Positions 5,780-55,444 are shown, counted from the first letter of the stretch. The stretch is DNA of 64,000 nt from an uncultured Actinomycetes bacterium (GCA_963843315.1 CAWJJU010000002.1:166872-230871), one strand, 5' to 3'. Numbers and translations are program-made. Notes: a model not told the origin generated them from the letters alone.

Positions 5780-7151
5780 CTACTGGTGGGTGGCCCAGCC
5801 GTCGACCGCGCGCGCCGCGTCGAGGATGGCCTCGGAGATCGTGGGATGCGGGTGGACGATCCGGGCGAGCTCCTGGTAGCCGCCCTCGAGGGCCATGACG
5901 TCGACGAGCTCGGAGATCATGTCGCAGGCCCGGTTGCCGACGATGTGGGCGCCCACGATCTCGCCGTACTTGGAGTCGGCCACGATCTTGACCATGCCGT
6001 CGCGGTCGTCGTAGACCGCCGAGGCGCCGACGCCGCCGAGCTTGAACTTGCCGACCTTGACGTCGTGCCCGGCCTCCTTGGCCTGCGCCTCGGTGAGGCC
6101 GACGCTCGCGACCTGGGGATGGCAGAAGGTCGCGCCCGGGACGAGGTCGATGTCGATCGCGTGCGTGTCGGCCCCGGCGATGGTCTCGGCCGCGACGACG
6201 CCCTCCTCGGAGGCCTTGTGCGCAAGCGCGGGCCCGCGCACGAGGTCGCCGATCGCGAACACCTTCTGGTTGGTGGTCCGCTGGAAGTCGTCGATCTTGA
6301 CCTTGCCGTTCTCCTCGACCTCGACCCCCGCCTCGGCGAGGCCGAGCGGGTCGGTGTCGGGACGGCGGCCGCCGGCGATCACCAGATAGTCGACCTCGGC
6401 GGAGCTGCTCGCCGTAGGTGAGCTTCACCGACTTGCCGGTGTCCTCGACGTTCTCGACCGGGTTGCCGGTGGCGACCTCGATGTTCTGCTTCTTGAAGGC
6501 GCGCTCGACCACGCGGGCCATGTCCTTGTCCTCGAGGGGGAGGATCTGGCCGAGCATCTCGATCAGGTGGACCTGGGTGCCGTAGCGCCCGTAGGCGGAG
6601 GCGATCTCCGAGCCCGAGGCGCCCGCGCCCACGACCGCCAGCGACTTCGGCTGTTCGGGCAGCGACCAGGCGCCCCACGTGTCGACGATGCGCCCGCCGA
6701 ACTCGACGCCCGGGATCGGCATGGCGACGGACCCGGTGGCGAGGATCACGGACTTCGCCTCGTACGTCTCGTCGCCGACCTTGACGTTGGCGTCGGCGGT
6801 GAGGGTGGCCTCGCCCTCGATCTGCTCGACCTTGTTCTTCTGCCAGAGCATCTTCACGCCGTCGGAGAGCCCCTGGCTGACGTTCGCGCGGCGTTCGCCG
6901 AGCGCCTTCCAGTCGAGCGAGGGCTTCTGCACCTTGATCCCCAGCTCGGCGCCGCCGTTGGCGACGTGGTCGTAGATCTCCGCCGTGTAGAGCATCGTCT
7001 TCGCCGGGATGCAGGCGTAGTTGAGGCACCGCCCGCCCGCCTTGTCCTTCTCCATAACAGCGGTGCGCTGCCCGAGCTGGGCGGCGCGGATCGCCGCGAC
7101 GTACCCGCCCGGGCCGCCGCCGATGACGATGACGTCGAATGGTTCAGCCAT
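5780..7151 (-). CDS. lpdA: Dihydrolipoamide dehydrogenase (E3), with an apparent +1 frame break near 6392-6410
   Basis: The N-terminal part, MAEPFDVIVIGGGPGGYVAAIRAAQLG..GGRCLNYACIPAK, lies in the frame of ORF 5769..7313. The C-terminal part, ..AGGRRPDTDPLGL..FAIGD..HPHPTISEA, lies in ORF 5780..6382. The total length is 1372 nt, which is 3n+1. Confidence 0.85.
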
Positions 7152-30754: not shown

Positions 30755-31875
30755 ATGACGGGGGTCCTGGGGGGCGCGGGGCGGCGGGCGGTGGCGGTGT
30801 CGACCAGCTCGCCCATGCCGTCGACCGTGTGCGACCAGGCTCGCTCAGAGCGCACCTCGCGCGCGCCGGCGGCCAGCCGCTCGCGCTCGGCGTCGTCGGC
30901 CACGCGCTCCATCAGCTCCGTGAGGTGACCGATGTCCGGGTCCCAGGCCGGGATGCCCGACTCGGCCGTGCCGTTTTGGATCGAGCGCACCAGCAGGCCG
31001 TTTCGCTCATGCTCGATCACCTCGTTCAGCGGCGCGAAGTCGCTGGTGATCACCGGCCTGCCGAACGCCATCGCCTCGAACAGGGGCAGGCCCAGGCCCT
31101 CCCAGCGGGCCGGCGTCAGCACCACGTCGGCGCCGGCGACGGTCGCGAGGTGGTCGCTCGTCGTCTGGTCCTCCAGAAGGAACTCGATGCGCGAGTCGCT
31201 CTCGGCCGCCTCGCGGGCGAGCTTGGTGCGCTTGTTGCGCTCGACCTGCGCCTTGATCAGCAGGCGAAGGCGCGGGTTCGTCGTCTTCTGGAACGCCTCG
31301 ATCGCCGGCGCGACGGGCTTGCGGTGGCCGATGAACCCGGCGGGGAAGATGAGCTGGACGACGTCGCCGGGCGCCGTGCGCTTGGGTGTCACGTCGAGTA
31401 GCTCGGGGTTGATGCCCCACGGCACGTACGGAGTCTCGAGGCCGAAGCTCCGGTAGCGCTCCTGCTCGCAGCGGGTCATCGAGTAGACGATGTCGAAGGC
31501 GTCACGGGCGCCGGGCACGTCGGCCTCGGTGAAGTGCTCCCAGACGAACCGGCCGATGGTCACGACCCCGCGGGCGCGCAGCGAGGCGAGCTCGTCGAAC
31601 TGGTAGTTCTGGTCGCACAGGATCACCTCGATGCCGCGGCGCTCGACCCAGCTCTCGTACTCCTCCGCGGTGATGTCGTAGGCCGCCGCCTCGTCGACGT
31701 TGGGCTGGTCCCACACGTCGTCGCGCTGAAGGCGGCCCTTCATCGGCCCCCGCTCCTTCTTGGGGCGGGCGAGGATGAACGTCTCGTGGCCCAGCTCGTC
31801 CATGGCCGAGCGCAGCTGGCGGGCGACCACGGGCTGGCCGCGGTTGAACCACTTCGTGACGAGGCCGACGCGCAC
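30745..31875 (-). CDS. GT4-family (group 1) glycosyltransferase, paralogue 1
   Basis: Starts at the GTG at 31875: VRVGLVTKWFNRGQPVVARQLRSAMDELGHETFILARP.. ..ARWEGLGLPLFEAMAFGRPVITSD (EX7E region). Paralogous to 37966..39063 and 54319..55407. Confidence 0.8.
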   Translation of the reverse strand: MRVGLVTKWFNRGQPVVARQLRSAMDELGHETFILARPKKERGPMKGRLQRDDVWDQPNVDEAAAYDITAEEYESWVERRGIEVILCDQNYQFDELASLRARGVVTIGRFVWEHFTEADVPGARDAFDIVYSMTRCEQERYRSFGLETPYVPWGINPELLDVTPKRTAPGDVVQLIFPAGFIGHRKPVAPAIEAFQKTTNPRLRLLIKAQVERNKRTKLAREAAESDSRIEFLLEDQTTSDHLATVAGADVVLTPARWEGLGLPLFEAMAFGRPVITSDFAPLNEVIEHERNGLLVRSIQNGTAESGIPAWDPDIGHLTELMERVADDAERERLAAGAREVRSERAWSHTVDGMGELVDTATARRPAPPRTPVMGS

Positions 31876-32792
31876 TACGTCGCGGAGTCGACCGGCACGC
31901 CGGTCTCGTAGCCGAGGTCGGCCAGCATGTCGCCGGCGATCGCCTCGAAGGCCTGGCGATCGGCCTCCGGCATCTGGCGCTTCCAGCGGCTGATGCGGTC
32001 GGTGTCGGGCGGCTTGGTGGTCATCGCGTGGGTCGCCATCCTGCGCTCGACGGTGAGGTCCTGCGCGCGGCCCTCGGCGGGCAGCGCTCGCGCCATCTCG
32101 CCGAGGCGGTCCGCCGAGCGCTCGTGGTAGCTCAGCATCGCGTCGTCCCAGGGAAGCTCGATGAACTCGCAGACCCTGCGCAGCACCGGCTCGGTGTCGG
32201 CGATCAGGTCCTCGTAGCGGACCTCGGTGTAGTACGCGAGCTTCGGGCCCATTCGCCGCGCCTTCTCGATCTTCTTCTTCCACCGCCCGCCGACGTGGGC
32301 GGCGTCGATGTCGCGGACCGTCCGGTCGAGCACCGAGAGCGCGACGTCGCGGCCGTCGCGGATGACGTGCACGAAGCGGGCCTCGGGCAGCGCCCTCTCG
32401 ATCTTCCGCATCTGCCCCACGTAGCGAGGGGTCTTCTCACCCCAGCGGGGCTTGCCCTGACGGGCTGCGTAGGCGCGATAGAAGGAGCGCACGGCCTCCC
32501 CGGCGTCGAGACCGTCGATGGCGGCCAGCCATCCCAGGGCCTCTTCGTCGGAGAAGTCGAAGTCGTTCCACTCGCGATGAGCCTTCATGGCCGCCAGCGC
32601 CGACTGCGGCGTCGCGCCGGCGGCGTTGCAGGCGTCGATCAGGTCCGGGACGAAGTGCGTCTCCGGCGGGATCGTCAGCTCGGGGTGAGCGTCGAGCATC
32701 ATCCGCAGCAGGGTCGTCCCCGAGCGGTTCATGCCGACGACGAACGGGAACGACGTGGCGGTGGTCTCGGGTCGGCGTCTGGTCAGCGGCAA
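31875..32792 (-). CDS. PAPS-dependent sulfotransferase family protein, ST1
   Basis: 5'-PSB-like loop VVGMNRSGTTLL and 3'-PB-like VHVIRDGRDVALS. The stop overlaps the downstream GT4 start by 1 nt. Confidence 0.75.
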   Translation of the reverse strand: MPLTRRRPETTATSFPFVVGMNRSGTTLLRMMLDAHPELTIPPETHFVPDLIDACNAAGATPQSALAAMKAHREWNDFDFSDEEALGWLAAIDGLDAGEAVRSFYRAYAARQGKPRWGEKTPRYVGQMRKIERALPEARFVHVIRDGRDVALSVLDRTVRDIDAAHVGGRWKKKIEKARRMGPKLAYYTEVRYEDLIADTEPVLRRVCEFIELPWDDAMLSYHERSADRLGEMARALPAEGRAQDLTVERRMATHAMTTKPPDTDRISRWKRQMPEADRQAFEAIAGDMLADLGYETGVPVDSAT

Positions 32793-32807
32793 GCTAGGCC
32801 TCCCGCG

Positions 32808-37002: not shown

Positions 37003-37105
37003 GAGGCGGCGATGCTAGCTATTGCGCCGGCCCAAGGCTGTAAGCGCTTCCAGTCGAAGGGACGGCCCTGTTGTTTGCGGCCGCATCGCCGGGTACCAGG
37101 GAGAT

Positions 37106-37969
37106 ATGGATCAGACCGAGACCGGCCGGGCGTCGATTCCTGACGAGCAGACGAACGAGCGCGTGCGCCTGCTCGTCGTTGCGGCCGATGAGCATGTTGC
37201 CGAGCCCCTCGAGCGCGAAATCGAGCGCGTCGCCAACGGCCGTGACCCCGAGGTCAAGATCGTCGCTCCGGCGCTCGCGCGGACACGATTCGAGCATTCC
37301 GCGGGGGCGGTCGACGAGGGAATGAGCGTGGCACAGACCCGCCTCGGGCGCGCCGAGGACCGGGTCGCCCACGACGCCCGGATCGCGGCCGGGACGCTCA
37401 CCGCCGAGGAGGTGGGCGACGCAGATCCGATCCTGGCGATCGACGATGCGCTGGCGAACTTCCACGCCGACGAGCTGCTGCTCGTCACCCACTCCCAGGG
37501 CGACGGCCGCTGGCTCGAGGACGACATGTTCGAGCAGGTCCGCAGGCGCTTCGCCATCCCCGTCACCCACTTCGAGATCCAGCAGGCGGGCGAGGCCGTC
37601 GAGACCGAGCGCGCCGACGGGACCGACGTCCCCGCTATGGAGAGCACGAGCCGGTCGGGCAACCTCGCCGGGCTGGACTGGCGCGAGCGCCTCGGCATCC
37701 TCGTCGCGATCGTCGGCACCATCGTCCTGATCGTCATCGCCTCGGCCGGCAACAGCCTGTCCGCCGACACCGACCTGGGTCAGCTGCATCTGTCCTCGCA
37801 GGTGATCCGCATCGCGATCGCCGGGCTCATGGCCCTGATCAACATCGGCAACGTGGTCGGGCTGATCCTGTTCTCGAGCGTCGGCTATCGCGGGTTCTGG
37901 CAGCGAGCCTTCGCCCACACGTCGCTGTGGGGAACGCTGATCGCGATCCCCGTCGCGCTGATCGTCTAG
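37106..37969 (+). CDS. Hypothetical protein with a cytoplasmic N-domain and three C-terminal TM helices
   Basis: The ATG at 37106 follows GGGAGA. The N-domain is vaguely USP-like (..LLVVAADEH..DADPILAIDDALANFHADELLLVTH). The C-terminus is hydrophobic. Confidence 0.5.
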   Translation: MDQTETGRASIPDEQTNERVRLLVVAADEHVAEPLEREIERVANGRDPEVKIVAPALARTRFEHSAGAVDEGMSVAQTRLGRAEDRVAHDARIAAGTLTAEEVGDADPILAIDDALANFHADELLLVTHSQGDGRWLEDDMFEQVRRRFAIPVTHFEIQQAGEAVETERADGTDVPAMESTSRSGNLAGLDWRERLGILVAIVGTIVLIVIASAGNSLSADTDLGQLHLSSQVIRIAIAGLMALINIGNVVGLILFSSVGYRGFWQRAFAHTSLWGTLIAIPVALIV

Positions 37970-39063
37970 CCGCCGAGCAGCTCGCGCAGGTCGGCGAGCG
38001 TGTTGTCCCAGCTCAGCCGCTCGCGAGCGGCGCGCGCTCCGCCGATCAGGTCGCGGCGCATACCGGGGTCGGCCAGGCGCTCGATCGCCGCCGTCAGCTC
38101 GCGCCCATCCGGATCCCACGCCGGGATCCCCGAGGGCGCCGGCTCGCGGAACTGCACCCCGCGCACAAGCAGGCCGTTCTCGCCGTCGCGGACGACCTCG
38201 TTCATGGGCGGGTTGTCGTTGGTGATCAGCGGCATCCCGAGCGCGGTCGCCTCGAAGAGGTGCAGCCCCAGGCCCTCCCAGCGGCTCGGCGCCAGGCAGA
38301 CGTCGGCCGCGGCGAACAGGCGCCGGTGCTCGGCCTCAGGGAGGTCGGCGAAGACCGGCTGGATGCGGGCGTCGCCCTTCGTCGCCTTCTGCACCATCCC
38401 CATGCGCTTCTCCACCTGACCCTTGAGCACTAGCCGGAGGTTCTCGCCGTGGGCGCGTGAGAACGCCTCCAGCGCGGGCTTCAGCGGCTTGCGCTTGGTC
38501 ATGTAGCCGCCGGGGAAGAAGAACGTCACCGGCGCGTCCTCCGGACGCGCATCGCGCTCGGCGTCGAGCGTGACCGCCTCCTCGACCAGCTCCGGGTGGA
38601 TGCCCCACCGCACGCGCGGGCTCTCTATCCCCATCTTCGCGTAGCGCTCGCGCTCGCAGGCCGTGACCGAATAGACCTCGTCGAAGGCCCGCTTGGCGCC
38701 CTCCACGTTCTCGGTGGCGAACTGCTCCCACACGAAGCGGCCGTAGGTGCGCACGCCGGATTCCCGAAGCCTCGCGATCTCGTCGAACTGGTAGTTCTGG
38801 TCGAACATGACGGCGTCGAGCTCGTGCTGGCGCGCCCAGCGCTCCATCTCCTCGTAGGGGATGAGGTAGTGCGAGGCGGCGGTGACACCGGGCTGGTCCC
38901 AGACGTCGTCGGTCTGCAGGTGTCCCGGCTTGGCGGCGGTGTCCTTGGCCGGTCGCGCCAGCACCCAGGTCTCGTGGCCGAGCGTCTCCAGCGCCGAACG
39001 CAGGTGCCTGCCCACCACCGCCTGGCCGCGGTTGAACCAGAAGCACGAGACGCCTACTCGCAT
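37966..39063 (-). CDS. GT4-family glycosyltransferase, paralogue 2
   Basis: MRVGVSCFWFNRGQAVVGRHLRSALETLGHETWVLARP....SRWEGLGLHLFEATALGMPLITNDNPPMNEVV...RLSWDNTLADLRELL. Very similar to 54319..55407. Confidence 0.8.
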   Translation of the reverse strand: MRVGVSCFWFNRGQAVVGRHLRSALETLGHETWVLARPAKDTAAKPGHLQTDDVWDQPGVTAASHYLIPYEEMERWARQHELDAVMFDQNYQFDEIARLRESGVRTYGRFVWEQFATENVEGAKRAFDEVYSVTACERERYAKMGIESPRVRWGIHPELVEEAVTLDAERDARPEDAPVTFFFPGGYMTKRKPLKPALEAFSRAHGENLRLVLKGQVEKRMGMVQKATKGDARIQPVFADLPEAEHRRLFAAADVCLAPSRWEGLGLHLFEATALGMPLITNDNPPMNEVVRDGENGLLVRGVQFREPAPSGIPAWDPDGRELTAAIERLADPGMRRDLIGGARAARERLSWDNTLADLRELLGG

Positions 39064-39070
39064 GGGCGGC

Positions 39071-39868
39071 TCAGGCCGGCGCGACGTCGGTGAAGTTGGG
39101 CCAGACCGAGAGGTCGAGCTCGGGCACCAGGCCCTTCAGCCGGGCCACGTCGTCGCGAAAGCGGCGCACCAGCTCGGCGTGGCGCTCGGGCGAGAGCTCC
39201 GGCTTGGTGCCCGGCGGCCGCTTGTGCTGGGCGAGCTTGTCGGGCATCTCCGTCAGCGGCTCGAGACCCAGGAACTCCTGGGTGCGGCGCATCTGGCCCA
39301 TCGCGTCGTTGCGACAGGCCTCGTGCTGGAGGATCAGGACGCGCTCGCGCGGATAGAGCTCGTAGATGCCCCTGACCTGCTCGTAGTAGAGGCCGCGGTA
39401 CACCGCCTCGGAGAGGTGGGACAGCGAAAAGGGCTCCCCCGCCTCGTCGGCGAGCATCCGCTCGCGCTGGATGCCCGACCGCAGGCGCTCGACTGGGTCG
39501 CGCAGCATCACCAGGATCTTGGCGTCGGGCGCCGCGTCGTGCAGCAGCTTCATCGCCCACCAGTCGACCATGTAGCGCGGGGTCCACTCGCCCGTGATCG
39601 CGCCCTCGGGCTTGGGGAAGAACGAGTGGTAGGTCTCCACGAGGTCGGGCGGCTCGGCGCCCTCCCAGAAGCGGTCGAAGTAGTGCAGCTCCTTGCCCGG
39701 CTTGGCGACGCGCACGACGTCCGGGTGCGAGCGGATCGTGCCGCGATACCACCACGACGTCCCGCAGCGCTGCGCGCCGACGCCCACGAAGTCGGGTGGG
39801 CCGGCGTTCCAGCCGGCGGGGGTCTCCGGGACCTCGATCCCCATGGTCCAGCGTTCCTGAGGGCTCAT
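39071..39868 (-). CDS. PAPS-dependent sulfotransferase family protein, ST2
   Basis: GVGAQRCGTSWW (5'-PSB) and VMLRDPVERLRSG (3'-PB). Lies 7 nt upstream of GT4 paralogue 2. Confidence 0.75.
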   Translation of the reverse strand: MSPQERWTMGIEVPETPAGWNAGPPDFVGVGAQRCGTSWWYRGTIRSHPDVVRVAKPGKELHYFDRFWEGAEPPDLVETYHSFFPKPEGAITGEWTPRYMVDWWAMKLLHDAAPDAKILVMLRDPVERLRSGIQRERMLADEAGEPFSLSHLSEAVYRGLYYEQVRGIYELYPRERVLILQHEACRNDAMGQMRRTQEFLGLEPLTEMPDKLAQHKRPPGTKPELSPERHAELVRRFRDDVARLKGLVPELDLSVWPNFTDVAPA

Positions 39869-39913
39869 CGTGCGCAGCAGCGTAGAAAGTCCGGCGCGCC
39901 CGCCGCGAAGCCG

Positions 39914-39930
39914 ATACCCCCACCCGGTAT
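39914..39930. promoter_or_regulatory. Candidate CsoR operator ATACCCCCACCCGGTAT
   Basis: A GC-tract-centred inverted repeat ATACC-N7-GGTAT ends 9 nt upstream of the csoR ATG. It resembles described CsoR operators (ATACC..GGTAT arms around a C/G tract). Confidence 0.55.
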
Positions 39931-39939
39931 GCTCTCAAC

Positions 39940-40242
39940 ATGGCAGATGCACCTCGTCCGCCGGGCTACGTCGCCGACAAGGAGGCTGTGCTGCGCCGGC
40001 TCTCGCGAGTCGAGGGACAGGTGCGCGGGATCCGGGGAATGGTCGACGACGAGGCCTACTGCATCGACGTCCTCACCCAGATCGCCGCCGCGACCAAGGC
40101 GCTGGACGGGGTCGCGCTGACCCTGCTGGCCGACCACACGAATCACTGTGTCCGCGACGCGGTCGCCGAGGGTGGCGACGCGGCCGACGAGAAGGTCGGC
40201 GAGCTGATCGCCGCGGTCGAGCGCTTCGCGCGGACGCGCTAG
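39940..40242 (+). CDS. csoR: CsoR/RcnR-family metal-sensing transcriptional repressor (Cu-type C-H-C fingerprint)
   Basis: RLSRVEGQVRGIRGMV, YCIDVLTQ and ..DHTNHC.. are the DUF156 hallmark motifs. Confidence 0.85.
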   Translation: MADAPRPPGYVADKEAVLRRLSRVEGQVRGIRGMVDDEAYCIDVLTQIAAATKALDGVALTLLADHTNHCVRDAVAEGGDAADEKVGELIAAVERFARTR

Positions 40243-41738
40243 CCCGGGGGCCCGGGGATCGCCGGCAGCGGGCGGCGGCAGGAGTCGCCGCTGCACTTGG
40301 CGAGCTGCACGAGGAGCGGGCGCAGGGCGTCGAGCGTGGCGGAGTACGTGGGATCGTGCGCGACGTTGTGGAGCTCGCCAGGGTCTCGCTGGAGGTCGAA
40401 GAGCTCCTGGGCACCGTTCAGGTAGTGCGTGTAGACGTAGCGCGGCGTACGGATCGAGTGGTAGCCGAGCCCCTCGACCGCGGCGCCCTCGTAGAGGATC
40501 GGCCGCCTGCTCCACGCGGAGGGGTCGTTCGCCTGCGCGACCAGCGACACGCCGTCGGTGCCTCGGCGCCAGGGGGCGCGGGCCAGGCTGAGGATGGTCG
40601 GCATCAGGTCCATGTTCCCCACGAGCTGGTCGCGCACGACGCCGGCCGGGAAGCCTGGGCCCCGGATCACGAGCGGGACCTTCACCGACTCCTCGTACGG
40701 GCGCTCCTTGCCCGCGGCCCGGTGCTCGCCGAGGAGGAAACCGTTGTCCGAGGTGAAGACGAAGACGGTGTTGTGCAGCTCGCCGGTGCTGCGCAGCGTG
40801 TCGACGAGGCTCCCCACGCCGCGGTCCACGGCCAGCAGGCTGGCCAGCCGGTCGCGGTATGCGGACGCGATCGCGGCTACAGGCCGGTCGGCGTGCTGCG
40901 GTGCCCGGAGCCGCTGAGGCTCCCCTGTGATCGGCGCCTCGAAGGACGGGGGACGAGGAAGCGGCCGATGCTCGAAGGCAGACTCATCCTGTGGCGCCGG
41001 CTGGGGGTTGCGCTGCCCCGGGACGACGGGAGCGTTGTGGGGGGCGGTTGGCGCGTAGGTGAGGAAGAACGGCTTGGGCCCTCCCGCGCTCTGCCGGATG
41101 AAGCCGGCGGCGAGGTTCGCGAGCGCGGTCGTCTGGTAGTCGGCGGGTCCCGCGGGCGGCTGGACCATCGTCCCGTTCTCATTGGCGCTCCAGCCGTACA
41201 TCAGGTACTCGGTGGGGCCGAACAGCCCGTCGAAGACATCCCACCCCCGCGGCATGTCCGTCGCCGGGTCCTCGGGCGCGTATTCGTTCAGGAACTTCCC
41301 CACGTATCCCGTTCGGTAGCCGGCGCTCTGCATCTCCGCGCCGATCGTGCGCCTCTGGTCGACGTGTGCGATGTACCCGACGTAGCCGCCATCCGGCGCA
41401 TCATTCGTGAGGATCCCGTGGTTGTGCGCGTACTCGCCGGTCATGAACGTGGTGCGGGAGGGGCAGCAGAGCGGGTAGGTGGCGAAGTTGTTCGCGAACG
41501 TGGTGCCGTGCCTGGCCAACTCGCGCCGGACCGCGGGCATGACGCTAAGGTCATCCGCTCGCTGGTCGTCGGTCATGACCACGACGACGTTCGGTTGACG
41601 CGCCGGCAGATGCGCCGTCAGGCTGGGGAACACCAACGGCCGGCCCGCGGGGGGGCCCTTCGCGTTGTCGGCGGAGCCGCACCCCGAGGCCATGGCCGGC
41701 ACAACGAGGAGCAACGGGATTAGGGCACGTCGGAACAT
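40239..41738 (-). CDS. Formylglycine-dependent sulfatase (arylsulfatase family), lipoprotein
   Basis: The ATG at 41738 gives MFRRALIPLLLVVPAMASGC (lipobox). Also NVVVVMTDDQRADD and LCCPSRTTFMTGEY (CxPxR FGly motif). Confidence 0.85.
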   Translation of the reverse strand: MFRRALIPLLLVVPAMASGCGSADNAKGPPAGRPLVFPSLTAHLPARQPNVVVVMTDDQRADDLSVMPAVRRELARHGTTFANNFATYPLCCPSRTTFMTGEYAHNHGILTNDAPDGGYVGYIAHVDQRRTIGAEMQSAGYRTGYVGKFLNEYAPEDPATDMPRGWDVFDGLFGPTEYLMYGWSANENGTMVQPPAGPADYQTTALANLAAGFIRQSAGGPKPFFLTYAPTAPHNAPVVPGQRNPQPAPQDESAFEHRPLPRPPSFEAPITGEPQRLRAPQHADRPVAAIASAYRDRLASLLAVDRGVGSLVDTLRSTGELHNTVFVFTSDNGFLLGEHRAAGKERPYEESVKVPLVIRGPGFPAGVVRDQLVGNMDLMPTILSLARAPWRRGTDGVSLVAQANDPSAWSRRPILYEGAAVEGLGYHSIRTPRYVYTHYLNGAQELFDLQRDPGELHNVAHDPTYSATLDALRPLLVQLAKCSGDSCRRPLPAIPGPPG

Positions 41739-43551
41739 CAAGCTTGGGCCACGCAAGAGAGCCGTTTGCCCTTTATGCGCGGTTGTCGCCGCCCTCGCTC
41801 TCACGGGATGCGGAGCGGGCGGGAGCGGATCGGCGGAATCGTCGCAGACCCCGCGGCCGCTCGGCTGCGCCAAGACGTACGGCATCCACCTCGGGAATCC
41901 CGACGAGGCTGAGCTGCGCGCCGCCCTGCACCACGAGTTCCGCGTGTTCAACCGCCGCGAACGGCTGGTCGTGCCGGTGAACTGGATGCAGGACCCCGAG
42001 CACAGCCATCGCTACCGCCAGAACCTCCAGAAGCTGCGGTTCCTGCGTCCGCTCCTCGACTCATACGAGGAGACCAGGGACATGCGGGCGTTGCGCGAGG
42101 CGCTGGGGCTGGGAATCGACTGGGTGCGCCAGAACCCGCGCGGAGGCCACGGGACTTCGCCCGACGCCTGGGAGGGGAAGGCGATCGGCGATCGTGTGCC
42201 GTTCCTCGGCGTTCTCGACTCCGCTGCTCACTGCGAGCACCTGCGGCGGCCGGCGCGGATCCTCGACGCGGCCCTCGTCGCGCACGGCAAGGCCCTTGCC
42301 GATCCGGCTGTCTACACGCCCAACAATCACGGCCTCTTCACCGACATCGGCCTCTATCTGGTCACCCGCTACGCCCCCGTGCTCCCGCAGGATCGATGGT
42401 GGCAGCGGCTCGCCACGACGCGATACGCGCAGACCCTCCAGGACCGCCTCTCACACGGCGTGTGGCTGGAGCACTCCTCCGCCTACCAGTTCCTGGTCGA
42501 GACCTCACTGGCGGGCTTCATCGAAGACGTCGGGCACAACCCGAGGCTGGAGCGGATCGACCGTCAAATGCGCCGCGCCGGCGGATGGTTCCTGGAACCC
42601 GACGGACGGATCTCGCTGCTGGGCGACTCCGACGAGAAGGACACCTCCGGATGGGCACACCGCCGGGCGGAGCGGACCTTCGGGCTGAAGCTCTTCCGCG
42701 GGGCTGGCTTCGCGTTCGTCCGCGCTCACGAGGACGGCGGCGGGACCGGCTACCTGACGGTCACCGACGGCTTCCACAACCTCACGCACAAGCACGCCGA
42801 CGAGCTCTCATTCGAGCTCTACGACCACGACCAGCGGCTGGTCGCCGACACCGGGCTCTACGACAAGGACCCGGGGCCCATCCGCGACTTCGACCTCTCG
42901 ACCCAGGCGCACTCGACGATCTCCGTCGACGGACGCAGCTACCCCATCGCCGATCCGAACGCGGTCTACGGCTCGGGACTGGAAGCGGCCGGCTCGACGG
43001 GGACCCTCTTCGCGATCGAGGGCCGCAACCGCATGCTCTCCCAGGAGGGCGTGAAGCAGCAGCGGCTGTTCCTCTACGAGCCCGGCGCCGGGCTGCAGGT
43101 GATCGACTGGCTCAGCTCACCGGCCGCTCACACCTACGACTCCTATCTCCAGCTCGGACCGAACGTCCAGGTGAGCCGCGACGGGCCGGGAGCCCTCTCC
43201 CTTTCCGCGGGCGTGCCCGAGGAAGGCGGCCTTCAGGGAGCCCTGTACGAGTGGGGAACCCCTCATCCCGCGACGAGCACGGTGCGGGGCAGCCGCCACC
43301 CGCTCGCCGGCTTCACGTCGCCTCAGTTCCGGGTGCTCATTCCCCGGACCACGGTTGACATGCGCACCCAGGGCACCGACGAAGTGCAGGCGTACTCGAT
43401 CGCGATGGACCCGACGGGCATTCACGTGGGGCGCGTAAGCGGCTCTCCCCGGCGAACCGATGTGCAGCTGGTCGATCGCACCGGCGAGCCCCAGGAAACG
43501 CTGCGGGTGACCCGCCGCGGCCACACGCTCACCATCCACCGCATCCCATGA
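41692..43551 (+). CDS. Heparinase II/III-like polysaccharide lyase family protein, lipoprotein; start uncertain
   Basis: Contains ..VVAALALTGCGAGG (lipobox) and ..NLTHKHADELSFELYDHDQRLVADTGLYDKD.. (Hepar_II_III signature region). A start at the ATG at 41692 overlaps the sulfatase 5' end. Alternatively, the ATG at 41777 could be the start if a +1 frame error is present. Confidence 0.65.
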   Translation: MAGTTRSNGIRARRNIKLGPRKRAVCPLCAVVAALALTGCGAGGSGSAESSQTPRPLGCAKTYGIHLGNPDEAELRAALHHEFRVFNRRERLVVPVNWMQDPEHSHRYRQNLQKLRFLRPLLDSYEETRDMRALREALGLGIDWVRQNPRGGHGTSPDAWEGKAIGDRVPFLGVLDSAAHCEHLRRPARILDAALVAHGKALADPAVYTPNNHGLFTDIGLYLVTRYAPVLPQDRWWQRLATTRYAQTLQDRLSHGVWLEHSSAYQFLVETSLAGFIEDVGHNPRLERIDRQMRRAGGWFLEPDGRISLLGDSDEKDTSGWAHRRAERTFGLKLFRGAGFAFVRAHEDGGGTGYLTVTDGFHNLTHKHADELSFELYDHDQRLVADTGLYDKDPGPIRDFDLSTQAHSTISVDGRSYPIADPNAVYGSGLEAAGSTGTLFAIEGRNRMLSQEGVKQQRLFLYEPGAGLQVIDWLSSPAAHTYDSYLQLGPNVQVSRDGPGALSLSAGVPEEGGLQGALYEWGTPHPATSTVRGSRHPLAGFTSPQFRVLIPRTTVDMRTQGTDEVQAYSIAMDPTGIHVGRVSGSPRRTDVQLVDRTGEPQETLRVTRRGHTLTIHRIP

Positions 43552-43596: not shown

Positions 43597-44907
43597 TCAG
43601 GGGGCGAGGGCTTTCAGGCGCTCCATCACCTCGGGCACGTGGCTCAGGTAGTCGGTCCACTCCATCGCCGTGACCCTCTCGGCGACGCCCTCGGGCGCGT
43701 CGGGGCTCTCCCGAATGCTCGCGGCGAGCAGCTCCTTGAACGGCCGGCGCTCCTCCAGCGCCCGGTGGGCGGCGGCCTGGACCACCCGGTAGGCGTCGTC
43801 GCGGGGCATGCCCGCCTCGACGAGGGCGGTGAGCGCGCGCTGGCTGAAGAGCGCGCCGTGGGTCATGTCGAGGTTCTCGCGCATCCGGTGCGGGTCGATC
43901 GTCATGTCGGCGGCGATCCGCGCGGCGAGGTGCTGCATGTAGTCGAGGCCGATGGTCGCGTCGGGCAGGATCACCCGCTCGGCGCCGGAGTGGGAGATGT
44001 CGCGCTCGTGCCAGAGGGCGACGTTCTCGAGGCCGGCCTGGCCGTAGCCCCGCAGCACGCGGGCGAGCCCGGTGATGCGCTCGGCGAGGATCGGGTTGCG
44101 CTTGTGGGGCATCGCCGAGGAGCCCTTCTGGCCCGAGCCGAACGGCTCGCGCACCTCGCCGACCTCCGTGCGCTGAAGGTTGCGGATCTCCGTCGCGAAG
44201 CGCTCGAGGCCGGCGCCGGCCAGCGCGATTGCGCTCAGCACGGCCGCGTGGCGGTCGCGCGGGACGACCTGGGTCGAGACGTCGTCGGCGCGCAGCCCGA
44301 GCGTCTCCATCACCCGCCGCTCGATCGAGGGTGGCACCGTCGCGTAGGTGCCGACGGCGCCGGAGAGCTTGCCGACCGCCGCGGCATGGAAAGCGTCCGT
44401 GAGCCGCGTGAGGTTGCGGTCGGCCTCGAACGCGAAGCCGGCGAGGCGCAGGCCGAACGTGGTGGGCTCGGCATGGATGCCGTGCGTACGCCCGACGCAG
44501 AGCGTGTCGGCCTGCTCGACCGCGCGGGCGACCAGCGCGTCGCGGTACGCGCGGGCGCCGGCGACCACGATCTCCCCGGCGGCGCGCAGCTGCAACGCGA
44601 GCGCGGTGTCGAGCACATCCGAGGACGTCAGCCCGTAGTGGATCCATCGCCCCTCCTCCCCGCCGATCGAGGCCGAGACCACGTCGACGAACGCGGCGAC
44701 GTCGTGGCCCGTCGTGCGCTCGCGCTCGGCGACCTCCTCGATCGAGAATTTGGCGCGCTCGCGGCACGCCGTCGCCGCAATCTCGGGCACCACGCCCTCC
44801 GCCGCCCACGCGTCGGTCGCGGCGAGCTCCACCTCGAGCCATCCGGACATGCGCTGCTCGTCGGTCCAAACGGAACCGATCTCCGCGCGTGTGTAGCGAC
44901 GGATCAA
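43597..44907 (-). CDS. purB: Adenylosuccinate lyase
   Basis: Contains ..HYGLTSSDVLDT..GRTHGIHAEPTTFG..GSSAMPHKRNP. Confidence 0.93.
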   Translation of the reverse strand: MIRRYTRAEIGSVWTDEQRMSGWLEVELAATDAWAAEGVVPEIAATACRERAKFSIEEVAERERTTGHDVAAFVDVVSASIGGEEGRWIHYGLTSSDVLDTALALQLRAAGEIVVAGARAYRDALVARAVEQADTLCVGRTHGIHAEPTTFGLRLAGFAFEADRNLTRLTDAFHAAAVGKLSGAVGTYATVPPSIERRVMETLGLRADDVSTQVVPRDRHAAVLSAIALAGAGLERFATEIRNLQRTEVGEVREPFGSGQKGSSAMPHKRNPILAERITGLARVLRGYGQAGLENVALWHERDISHSGAERVILPDATIGLDYMQHLAARIAADMTIDPHRMRENLDMTHGALFSQRALTALVEAGMPRDDAYRVVQAAAHRALEERRPFKELLAASIRESPDAPEGVAERVTAMEWTDYLSHVPEVMERLKALAP

Positions 44908-52309: not shown

Positions 52310-54198
<1,889 letters not shown>

Positions 54199-54318: not shown

Positions 54319-55407
54319 TCAGGCGAGGAGCTCGCGCAGGTCCGCGAGCGTGTTGTCCCAGGACAGGCGCTGCTGGGATCGCAGCGTGCCCTCGGCGAGG
54401 CCGGCGCGCACGCGGCTGTCGCCGATCCGCTCGATCGCCTTCGCCAGGGCCTTCACGTCGGGGTCGAAGGCGGCGATTCCGGAGTCTGCCGGCTGGTCGC
54501 GCTCGACGCCGGGCACCAGCAGCCCGTTCTCCCCATCGAAGACCACCTCGTTCATCGGCGGGTTGTCGTTGGCGATCTGGGGGAGGCCGAGGCCGACGGC
54601 CTCGAAGAGGTGCAGGCCGAGGCCCTCCCAGCGGCTCACCGACAGGCACGCGTCGGAGGCGGCGAACAGGCGCTGGTAGCCCTCGTTGGGCATGTCCTCG
54701 AAGATCAGCTCGACGCGGGGGTCGTCGGCCGCGAGCTTTCGCAGGAAGCCCTCGCGGCCGTCGATCTGGGCCTTGAGGCGCAGGCGCAGGTGGTCGCCCT
54801 TCGCCCTGTGGAAGGCCTTGAACATCGGCCGCAGGGGCTTGCGCTTGTCGACGTGGCCGCCGGGGAAGAAGAGGACGCAGGTGCCGTCGTCGGCGCGGCC
54901 CTCGGCGCGGTAGCGCTCGCCCGCCTCGATCAGCTCCGGGTGGCATCCCCAGCGAACGCGCGGGCTGTCGATGCCCATCGTCGAATACCGCGACTGCTCG
55001 CAGGCGAGCACCGAGTAGACGACGTCGAAGGCGCCCTTGGCGGCCTCGACGTGCTCATCGGAGAAGGTCTCCCAGACGAAGCGGCCGATCGTCCGCACGC
55101 CGGCCGCGCGCAGCTTGGCGATCTCGTCGAACTGGTAGTTCTGATCGAAGAAGACGGCCTCGAGCTCATGGCTGCGCGCGAACTCGAGCATCTCCTCGGC
55201 CGGGATCAGATAGTGGGACGCCTCGGTGATGCCCGGCTGGTCCCAGATGTCGGTGCGGTCGATGAAGCCGGGGCGAGCGGCGGTGAGCTTCGTGGGCCGG
55301 GCCAGCACGAACGTCTCATGGCCCAGCGCGTCGAGCGCCGAGCGCAGATGCCGGCCGACGATCGCCTGGCCGCGGTTGTGCCAGTAGCTGCAGACCCCGA
55401 GGCGCAT
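54319..55407 (-). CDS. GT4-family glycosyltransferase, paralogue 3
   Basis: MRLGVCSYWHNRGQAIVGRHLRSALDALGHETFVLARP...SRWEGLGLHLFEAVGLGLPQIANDNPPMNEVV..RLSWDNTLADLRELLA. Confidence 0.8.
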   Translation of the reverse strand: MRLGVCSYWHNRGQAIVGRHLRSALDALGHETFVLARPTKLTAARPGFIDRTDIWDQPGITEASHYLIPAEEMLEFARSHELEAVFFDQNYQFDEIAKLRAAGVRTIGRFVWETFSDEHVEAAKGAFDVVYSVLACEQSRYSTMGIDSPRVRWGCHPELIEAGERYRAEGRADDGTCVLFFPGGHVDKRKPLRPMFKAFHRAKGDHLRLRLKAQIDGREGFLRKLAADDPRVELIFEDMPNEGYQRLFAASDACLSVSRWEGLGLHLFEAVGLGLPQIANDNPPMNEVVFDGENGLLVPGVERDQPADSGIAAFDPDVKALAKAIERIGDSRVRAGLAEGTLRSQQRLSWDNTLADLRELLA

Positions 55408-55444
55408 CAGCCTGGGCTACCCCGCTCGATCCTCGGGCGAACGA

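Follow-up and report, generated by a model that had tools for sequence, protein, structure and literature searches.

A predicted lipoprotein sulfatase and a heparinase-III-like protein encoded head to head beside glycan genes in an uncultured soil actinobacterium

According to the available text of two papers, the heparin/heparan sulfate (HS) locus of Bacteroides holds BT4656, an S1_11 6-O-sulfatase, together with BT4657, an enzyme of family PL12 (PMC9067506, PMC10154612). This is the closest known pair to the one analysed here, which lies in a window of 64,000 nucleotides (the whole stretch of DNA that was analysed, CAWJJU010000002.1:166872-230871) from an uncultured Actinomycetes bacterium. 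In this window, a gene for a Cys-type S1 sulfatase (40239..41738, minus strand) and a gene for a protein of the heparinase III fold (41692..43551, plus strand; called the lyase below) are transcribed away from each other. The window has a G+C content of 70%, and the source genome (G000) comprises 2.8 Mb in 9 contigs and is 88% complete. It was compared with the genome of a sister species (G004, 96% complete), whose orthologs are 65% identical for the lyase and 72% identical for the sulfatase, as well as with 9 genomes of the genus and with 34 loci from a scan of species-representative genomes. Judged from sequence, both enzymes are new members of established classes, and a role for the module as a whole is proposed. 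Meanwhile, sulfated polymers made by bacteria form a second point of comparison. In the available text of PMC13390465, xss (synechan, Synechocystis) and wps-1 (Actinoplanes missouriensis) are proposed as clusters for sulfated polysaccharides, bacterial sulfated polysaccharides are described as reported from cyanobacteria only, and the actinomycete cluster is taken as a hint of more.

The frame of the lyase is open from 41599 to the stop at 43551 and encodes 619 amino acids from the nearest canonical in-frame ATG; its residues are numbered here from 41746. It matches PF07940 (Hepar_II_III_C) with 93.4 bits (cut-off 24), while PF16889 (Hepar_II_III_N), which most homologs carry, scores 19.1 bits and stays below its cut-off of 22. 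A profile of nine relatives recovers heparinase III of Pedobacter (4mmi/4mmh) with an E value of 2.6e-9 over residues 61-410, and PL17 alginate lyases weakly. The AlphaFold2 model built from 60 sequences (predicted local distance difference test, pLDDT, 91.1; predicted TM-score, pTM, 0.88) consists of an alpha/alpha toroid followed by an antiparallel beta-sandwich, and its top five Foldseek matches are all heparinase III entries (E 1e-24 to 4e-21, TM-score 0.65-0.75), for instance 4mmi (1.3e-24), 5jmd (1.8e-24) and 4fnv (4.1e-21, TM-score 0.75). Lyases of PL15, PL39, PL35 and PL17 and human dermatan-sulfate epimerase 1 (6hzn, E 1.1e-16) rank lower. The lyase therefore has the same two-domain fold as heparinase III (HepC, PL12; 4MMH/4MMI of Pedobacter heparinus; BT4657 of Bacteroides thetaiotaomicron, 5JMD and 4FNV), and the assignment to the heparinase II/III family given in the earlier note is borne out by the Pfam match, the profile match and the fold together. 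It differs from heparinase III in that it shares only 14-16% identity with it in structural alignments and in being a predicted lipoprotein of a soil actinobacterium, encoded outside any utilisation locus.

The active site of heparinase III is recognisable in the lyase. Asn194, in the Asn194-His195 pair (42325..42330), Tyr247 (42484..42486) and His348, in HKHADELSFELYD (42787..42825, all on the plus strand), align with the neutraliser Asn240 and the catalytic Tyr294 and His424, which are the active-site residues tabulated for 4MMH in the available text of PMC12088678 (the 4MMH chain numbering in the alignment is 24 below the numbering of that paper). N194, H195, Y247 and H348 are invariant in 60/60 aligned members of the lyase family; the DTGLY segment named in the earlier note lies at 42847-42861. 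The score against the HepC equivalog NF045572 is 20.9 bits for a cut-off of 600, so the protein is not a HepC equivalog; the lyase is a new, distant member of the PL12-like group, with its proton-abstraction machinery intact. Cleavage and epimerisation by such a protein are not distinguishable from sequence; lyase and epimerase chemistries are close in this fold, according to the available text of PMC8006597.

The frame of the sulfatase is open over 40239-41951 on the minus strand, and the sensible start is the ATG at 41738, which gives 499 amino acids beginning with MFRRALIPLLLVVPAMASGC and a monocistronic gene. Its identity is carried by Pfam, by the match to 5g2v and by the ortholog in G004. 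PF00884 scores 160.7 bits (cut-off 25) and covers profile positions 1-299 of 301, and the C-terminal domain SGSH_C scores 66.5 bits. The formylglycine motif LCCPSR occupies residues 90-95 (41454..41471, minus strand; codon of Cys91 at 41466-41468) and is followed by TTFMTG, so that residues 90-101 read LCCPSRTTFMTG, which is the C/S-x-P-x-R signature with the downstream (L/M)TG; the same residues are found in G004. The intact CxPxR motif of a formylglycine sulfatase, claimed earlier, was thus recovered. In the PDB sequence search, the best solved relatives are carbohydrate 6-O-sulfatases, led by the N-acetylglucosamine-6-sulfatase 5g2v (E 1e-34). The relatives further include phosphonate monoester hydrolases and hydrolases of the PehA type. 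The sequence alignment places MTDD, GK, SDNGF and GEH...K at the metal-binding and catalytic positions of 5g2v and LCCPSR at its equivalent GPSR segment. The window sulfatase therefore resembles the S1_11 exo-6-O-sulfatases (5G2V) in S1 fold, motif and aligned metal and catalytic positions, but it is a distant relative at that E value and has a Cys-type motif where 5G2V has GPSR and no Cys. From these comparisons it appears to be of the hexosamine/galactose 6-O-sulfatase kind, an established enzyme class. We take 5G2V to be BT4656 itself, the product of the gene next to BT4657.

Both genes carry lipoboxes, as had been noted before. The signal peptide of the sulfatase (41679..41738, minus strand, from translation) is MFRRALIPLLLVVPAMASG followed by the lipobox Cys, residue 20, with its codon at 41679-41681; the lipobox reads PAMASG before the Cys, and 20 residues from start to Cys is the usual distance. 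In the lyase, the lipobox is LTGC, with RKRAVCPLCAVVAALALTG before the Cys, whose codon is 41809-41811. Lgt (PF01790, 144.6 bits) and LspA (PF01252, 94.9 bits) are encoded in the source genome, and both enzymes are predicted to be lipoproteins on the outer face of the membrane.

As a pair, the two genes can be set against three described arrangements. AlgL is an extracytoplasmic lyase encoded in the alginate operon, and it has been proposed to trim or clear the cell's own acidic polymer. The window lyase is like AlgL in being predicted extracytoplasmic and in having its gene near polymer-synthesis genes, and it is unlike AlgL in belonging to a different fold family, in not being part of a synthesis operon and in having a sulfatase partner. 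Like BT4656-BT4657, as given in the available text of PMC9067506, the window sulfatase is paired with a PL12-type gene. Unlike the Bacteroides pair, it has no adjoining GH88, SusC/D, transporter or sensor gene, it comes from a Gram-positive lineage with lipoprotein anchoring, it stands beside synthesis genes, and neither a formylglycine-generating enzyme (FGE) nor an anaerobic sulfatase-maturating enzyme (anSME) was found in its genome. A utilisation locus for glycosaminoglycans (GAGs) of the Bacteroides type does not surround the pair, whose neighbours are a csoR-like gene, a sulfotransferase, a glycosyltransferase of family 4 (GT4) and purB. With xss and wps-1 the window shares a sulfotransferase beside a glycosyltransferase, and, in the available text of PMC13390465, wps-1 has a glycan-cleaving GH26 inside the cluster and an actinomycete host, as well as, like xss, Wzx/Wzy export genes, in place of which the window genes are threaded among purine genes. 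The words sulfatase and lyase occur 0 times in the text of PMC13390465 at hand. In the literature searched, no description was found of this lyase family in Actinomycetota or of a sulfatase/PL12 pair beside sulfotransferases.

The gene neighbourhood suggests what the pair may act on. Next to the sulfatase and convergent with it lies a gene for a CsoR/RicR-like metal-sensing repressor (39886..40242, plus strand; PF02583, 101.6 bits), then come the open frames of the sulfotransferase (39071..39934, minus strand; PF00685 and PF13469) and the GT4 glycosyltransferase (37966..39135, minus strand; PF00534 and PF13692), each 83% identical in G004. On the other side, purB (43597..44907, minus strand; Lyase_1 and ADSL_C, 86% identical in G004) is convergent with the lyase gene and marks the boundary of the module. 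The pair is thus adjacent to a sulfotransferase/glycosyltransferase module, as the earlier note stated, but shares no operon with it: an operon of sulfatase, sulfotransferase and GT4 was considered and rejected because the plus-strand csoR-like gene intervenes, and sulfatase and lyase are therefore each single-gene units. The order purC, GT4, sulfotransferase, csoR-like gene, sulfatase, lyase, purB is the same in G004. In 5/5 further genus loci (G001, G002, G005, G007 and G008), a lyase paralog of 34-38% identity stands between purF and a block of abhydrolase, purL, GT4 and several sulfotransferase genes, with no sulfatase beside it; in G006, on a short contig, the paralog lies beside purF. 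Among the 34 species-representative loci, relatives of at least 35% identity are mostly from metagenome-assembled genomes (MAGs) of Solirubrobacterales/Thermoleophilaceae and the weakest (20-29%) mostly from Proteobacteria. An S1 sulfatase adjoins the lyase homolog in 3/34 of them (L038, L053 and L054). L038 matches G004 in both gene order and identities and is hence not independent. In L053 and L054, both from distant MAGs, the sulfatase is directly downstream of the lyase on the same strand, and the pair adjoins an LCP (LytR-CpsA-Psr) ligase and a UDP-sugar 6-dehydrogenase, an enzyme that makes uronic-acid precursors. The same LCP-dehydrogenase locus is present in the source genome on another contig, with the pair absent. 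Given these varied loci near glycan genes, the pair behaves as a movable two-gene module, one that would tend to land beside genes for anionic envelope glycans.

The most probable role, which we put at about even odds (0.5), is that the pair remodels the cell's own sulfated, uronic-acid-bearing envelope glycan. The sulfatase and the PL12-like enzyme, made from two back-to-back single-gene units, would be tethered by lipid at the outer face of the membrane. There, the sulfatase would desulfate the glycan first, after which the PL12-like enzyme would cut it by beta-elimination (or possibly epimerise it), its Asn/Tyr/His set abstracting the C5 proton of a uronic acid; the outcome may be turnover, release or length control of the glycan. 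An endogenous sulfated polymer had also been suggested in the earlier note, and that idea gains from the comparative context and from GH88/GH105 not being found, while the function itself is still reached by inference. A module for desulfation and chain cutting that recurs near sulfotransferase/GT4 or LCP/UDP-sugar-dehydrogenase genes would point indirectly to the production and remodelling of such a polymer by uncultured Solirubrobacterales, and the pair supplies two expressible enzymes for finding it.

Several observations weigh against an endogenous substrate. To our knowledge, no sulfated or uronic-acid polymer has been described from this organism. APS (adenosine 5'-phosphosulfate) kinase, which is required for the sulfate donor, is present in 8/8 other genomes of the genus and was not found in the 88% complete source genome. 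By gene layout, the pair is not co-transcribed with the sulfotransferase and GT4 genes. The largest lyase clade (45-49% identity; L040, L043, L047 and L050) has no glycan genes nearby, and neither has the source genome's own lyase paralog. S1 sulfatases are numerous: 24/24 genomes of the family have matches, between 1 and 13 apiece, and some of these lie close together on one contig, which fits scavenging (this tally, like that of FGE-type matches below, includes G013, flagged unpublished). Neither FGE nor anSME was found in G000 or G004, at the completeness given above, and the sulfatase is therefore perhaps poorly active or inactive. Finally, the window has no canonical lyase start at the start position of G004, and 1-nt insertions in the assembly mean that there may be an error near the lyase start.

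The same pair could instead serve scavenging, in which it would attack exogenous sulfated glycans of plant, fungal, animal or microbial origin in soil for carbon or sulfate, and the proximity of the sulfotransferase and GT4 would be an accident of a compact genome in which accessory genes are threaded among housekeeping genes. The closest solved relatives of both proteins, a GlcNAc-6-sulfatase and the heparinase III BT4657, are catabolic, and BT4656 (S1_11) and BT4657 (PL12) share one heparin/HS utilisation locus in the available text of PMC9067506. The abundance and clustering of sulfatases in the family speak for it too, as do the other lyase-family members that lie among unrelated housekeeping genes and the fact that the two genes form their own transcription units. 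However, the Bacteroides heparin pathway needs GH88/GH105, as far as the text of PMC9067506 was available, and GH88/GH105 (PF07470) is present in 0/9 genus genomes. Moreover, no sugar transporter, sensor or kinase adjoins the pair, the lyase family recurs near glycopolymer-synthesis genes in three different layouts, and both proteins are lipid-anchored rather than released. We hold scavenging to be less probable than an endogenous role. A different view keeps the endogenous glycan and makes the "lyase" a polymer-level uronyl C5-epimerase in synthesis (glucuronic to iduronic acid, GlcA to IdoA, or mannuronic to guluronic acid, ManA to GulA), with the sulfatase editing the sulfation pattern in the manner of the animal extracellular 6-O-endosulfatases. 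This would suit a gene beside biosynthetic genes, and human dermatan-sulfate epimerase 1 is among the Foldseek matches; that enzyme and heparinase II have their fold and active-site residues in common, and small active-site changes could convert a lyase to an epimerase (both from the available text of PMC8006597). Yet every better structural or sequence match is a lyase, and the residues that align are the heparinase III triad, so that an epimerase is improbable. A wider proposal, which we regard as doubtful, makes the pair one part of a full "write, erase and cut" system that acts on a heparan-like glycan of the cell's own envelope: cytoplasmic sulfotransferases and GT4s would build the glycan, the surface 6-O-sulfatase and PL12-like lyase/epimerase would remodel it, and the sulfatase would be matured by a route other than FGE or anSME.

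How the sulfatase would obtain its formylglycine bears on all of these readings. A gene for FGE or anSME elsewhere in the genome had been proposed in the earlier note as a check on the pair; the search found none in G000 or in G004, and the family assignment itself was not disproved. The sole PF03781 locus of the source genome (G000:C3:180361-181035, L001) was rejected as FGE since it belongs to a 405-aa frame of EgtB, an ergothioneine enzyme (TIGR03440, 338 bits), adjoined by EgtD (336 bits, over its cut-off). Likewise, the sole PF03781 locus of G004 (G004:C14, L021) is EgtB beside EgtD. Within the genus, a full-length FGE-type match occurs in 1/9 genomes, namely G005 (328-aa frame, 280 bits), and within the family in 12/41. 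The anSME model TIGR03942 is over its cut-off in 0/9 genus genomes, and the single anSME-like match of the source genome was set aside as a GrrM/OscB peptide maturase (355 bits; cut-off 310). This cyclophane-forming radical SAM/SPASM maturase, at G000:C2:704850-705392 (L027), suggests a locus for a ribosomally synthesised and post-translationally modified peptide (RiPP).

It is conceivable that the sulfatase is inactive as a formylglycine enzyme here, and that it works weakly with an unmodified Cys, acts on another ester (a phosphate or phosphonate monoester) or serves for binding only. Besides the missing maturation enzymes, the phosphonate monoester hydrolase and PehA-type relatives would fit this, and a choline sulfatase has been studied in unmodified form (PMC6189696, as far as its text is available). 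On the other hand, LCCPSR and TTFMTG are kept identical in G004, the metal-binding and catalytic positions align with 5g2v, and sulfatases in 24/24 family genomes against FGE-type matches in 12/41 argue for another route of maturation rather than for dozens of dead genes. We therefore hold an inactive sulfatase to be quite improbable. The available text of PMC3920027 names FGE and anSME alone as sulfatase maturation systems. The contrast between sulfatases and FGE-type matches across the family offers a clean genomic setting in which to seek a missing one. Benjdia and colleagues reportedly proposed in 2007 a third, unidentified system for E. coli, which would also count against an inactive enzyme.

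The 5' ends of the two genes lie so close that the start of the lyase has to be considered separately. If ATG 41692 is used, the coding regions overlap head to head by 47 nt (41692..41738), between ATG 41692 on the plus strand and ATG 41738 on the minus strand; the divergent arrangement and the length of the overlap agree with the earlier description. ATG 41692 had been called the only canonical in-frame start; it is the nearest one, but TTG 41665 is also in frame. The frame further contains the table-11 codons ATT 41719 and ATC 41737, and there is no in-frame ATG, GTG or TTG between ATG 41692 and the lipobox Cys. A start at ATG 41692 yields a signal peptide of 40 residues. In this longer N-terminus, RRNIKL was considered as a twin-arginine translocation (Tat) signal and rejected on account of the basic PRKR between the motif and the hydrophobic core. 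In 41692..41738, the third codon positions of both strands coincide (from the codon lists), and the open lyase frame upstream of 41738 is without weight because it is a shadow frame of the sulfatase.

Comparison with G004 gives a second candidate region. The proximal start of the G004 lyase is a GTG at L004:1534, from which the protein reads VPQLRALSVAGVAASLLALSSC. By protein and DNA alignment, the segment 41746..41811 of the window (plus strand) is homologous to this 22-codon lipoprotein signal peptide, with GGG at 41746-41748 against the GTG of G004. Neither the DNA nor the protein alignment contains a gap between the start position and the Cys codon, a distance of 21 codons in both genomes; CCA and the rare AGA occupy matching places, and the in-frame codons of the window encode an RKR n-region followed by a 14-residue hydrophobic core, as long as in G004. 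The closest full-length relatives, P0005 (57% identical) and P0006 (56%), have lipoprotein signals of 20 residues. In G004, the sulfatase starts no further in than GTG L004:1540, so that with canonical starts an overlap of at least 7 nt is unavoidable, and abutting or overlapping 5' ends are therefore a trait of the gene pair. The start at ATG 41692 (or TTG 41665) is preferred tentatively. A start at or near 41737-41746 is also a real possibility, whether base 41747 is miscalled (GTG read as GGG), a G is missing after TTG 41744 or ATC 41737 is used. It is very improbable that the start is lost and the gene silent.

The earlier note had offered another solution, in which one G in GCGCGGTTG (41777-41785) is spurious and the lyase starts at an ATG given as 41777. 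That ATG in fact spans 41775-41777; it is out of frame, and skipping one G of the GG at 41781-41782 (both within 41775..41785, plus strand) does join it to the frame of the lipobox, as described, with a very short signal peptide from ATG 41775 or TTG 41766 and no overlap. In favour of this, each of two housekeeping genes of the window contains a 1-nt insertion of that kind, with a G added next to an existing plus-strand G, and the extra base in dnaK (near 52969) is missing from related soil contigs. G+C at third codon positions (GC3) is also lower in 41746-41811 (0.64) than in the remaining lyase gene (0.89). Nevertheless, GC3 is likewise lower at the 5' end of the sulfatase (0.82 in the first 22 codons, 0.92 in the rest), removal of a G at 41781 would break the ungapped 21-codon alignment with G004, and the codons as assembled yield a textbook RKR n-region and 14-residue core, while the hydrophobic stretch of the short form would shrink to about 7 residues, compared with 10 to 14 for the closest relatives. 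With about 2 insertions per 64 kb, an error in a given 10-nt stretch is rare a priori, although oddities picked for study are enriched for assembly errors. Since the frame as assembled follows the G004 signal peptide codon by codon, no indel is needed, and a spurious G is hardly probable. The frame of the lyase thus appears correct as assembled, and with ATG 41692 the 47-nt overlap would be a true one.

The two housekeeping insertions are documented as follows. In dnaK, the frame is broken at 52933-52997 by one extra base in ATTCCCGACC, and related soil contigs skip base 52969; in lpd, it is broken near 6400 (about 6395-6410), again by one extra base. In each case the added letter repeats its neighbour and reads C on the minus strand, G on the plus strand. 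For the read check, 6 soil runs from 2 studies matched (shares 0.06-0.18, no RNA), and four were examined. Parts of the window, for instance 41170-41517 and 42252-42653, are covered by short soil contigs that match it exactly or almost exactly; among the matches listed from the four runs, no contig spans 41692-41790 and none has an indel there. A protein-guided scan of metagenomes gave no matches, and neither did a scan with a DNA pattern across the start region. A promoter and terminator scan of 41400-42100 returned 0 sites, and inverted repeats in 41550-41950 are weak GC-rich pairs, none of them at the shared 5' region. By eye, no TANNNT-like hexamer is seen at -12 to -7 of the G004 GTG, of ATG 41775 or of the sulfatase ATG, an observation of no evidential weight. 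The question of the start codon is a local one, and it shows how a shadow frame at 70% GC and an indel-prone assembly can mislead annotation. At roughly one such indel per 30 kb, other odd gene starts and splits in the source genome are to be read accordingly.

Some further features of the genomes compared may be recorded. Four or five S1 sulfatase matches lie close together on one contig at each of G005:C8:773584-779580, G007:C7:20427-26384 and G014:C150:22075-28250. In L030 (G002) and L034 (G005), purL, the abhydrolase gene and the lyase paralog are in several frame-shifted pieces. The csoR-like gene and the sulfatase gene overlap by 4 nt at their stops; the csoR-like gene is 83% conserved in G004 and scores 116 bits with the RicR model, below the cut-off of 175. 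Classical FGE is a copper enzyme (from the reference list of PMC10154612), and any link between the csoR-like gene and FGE would be a guess, as FGE was not found here. Between purC and the GT4 gene, 37019-37969 (plus strand) holds a 316-aa frame of high GC3 that matches no Pfam family, where G004 has about 185 nt. In addition, the GT4 at 37966-39135 has two paralogs in the window, 30802-31875 and 54319-55416 (both on the minus strand), which are 49% and 63% identical to it; one of the paralogs lies between purL and a sulfotransferase at 31875-32807, and the other just past dnaK.

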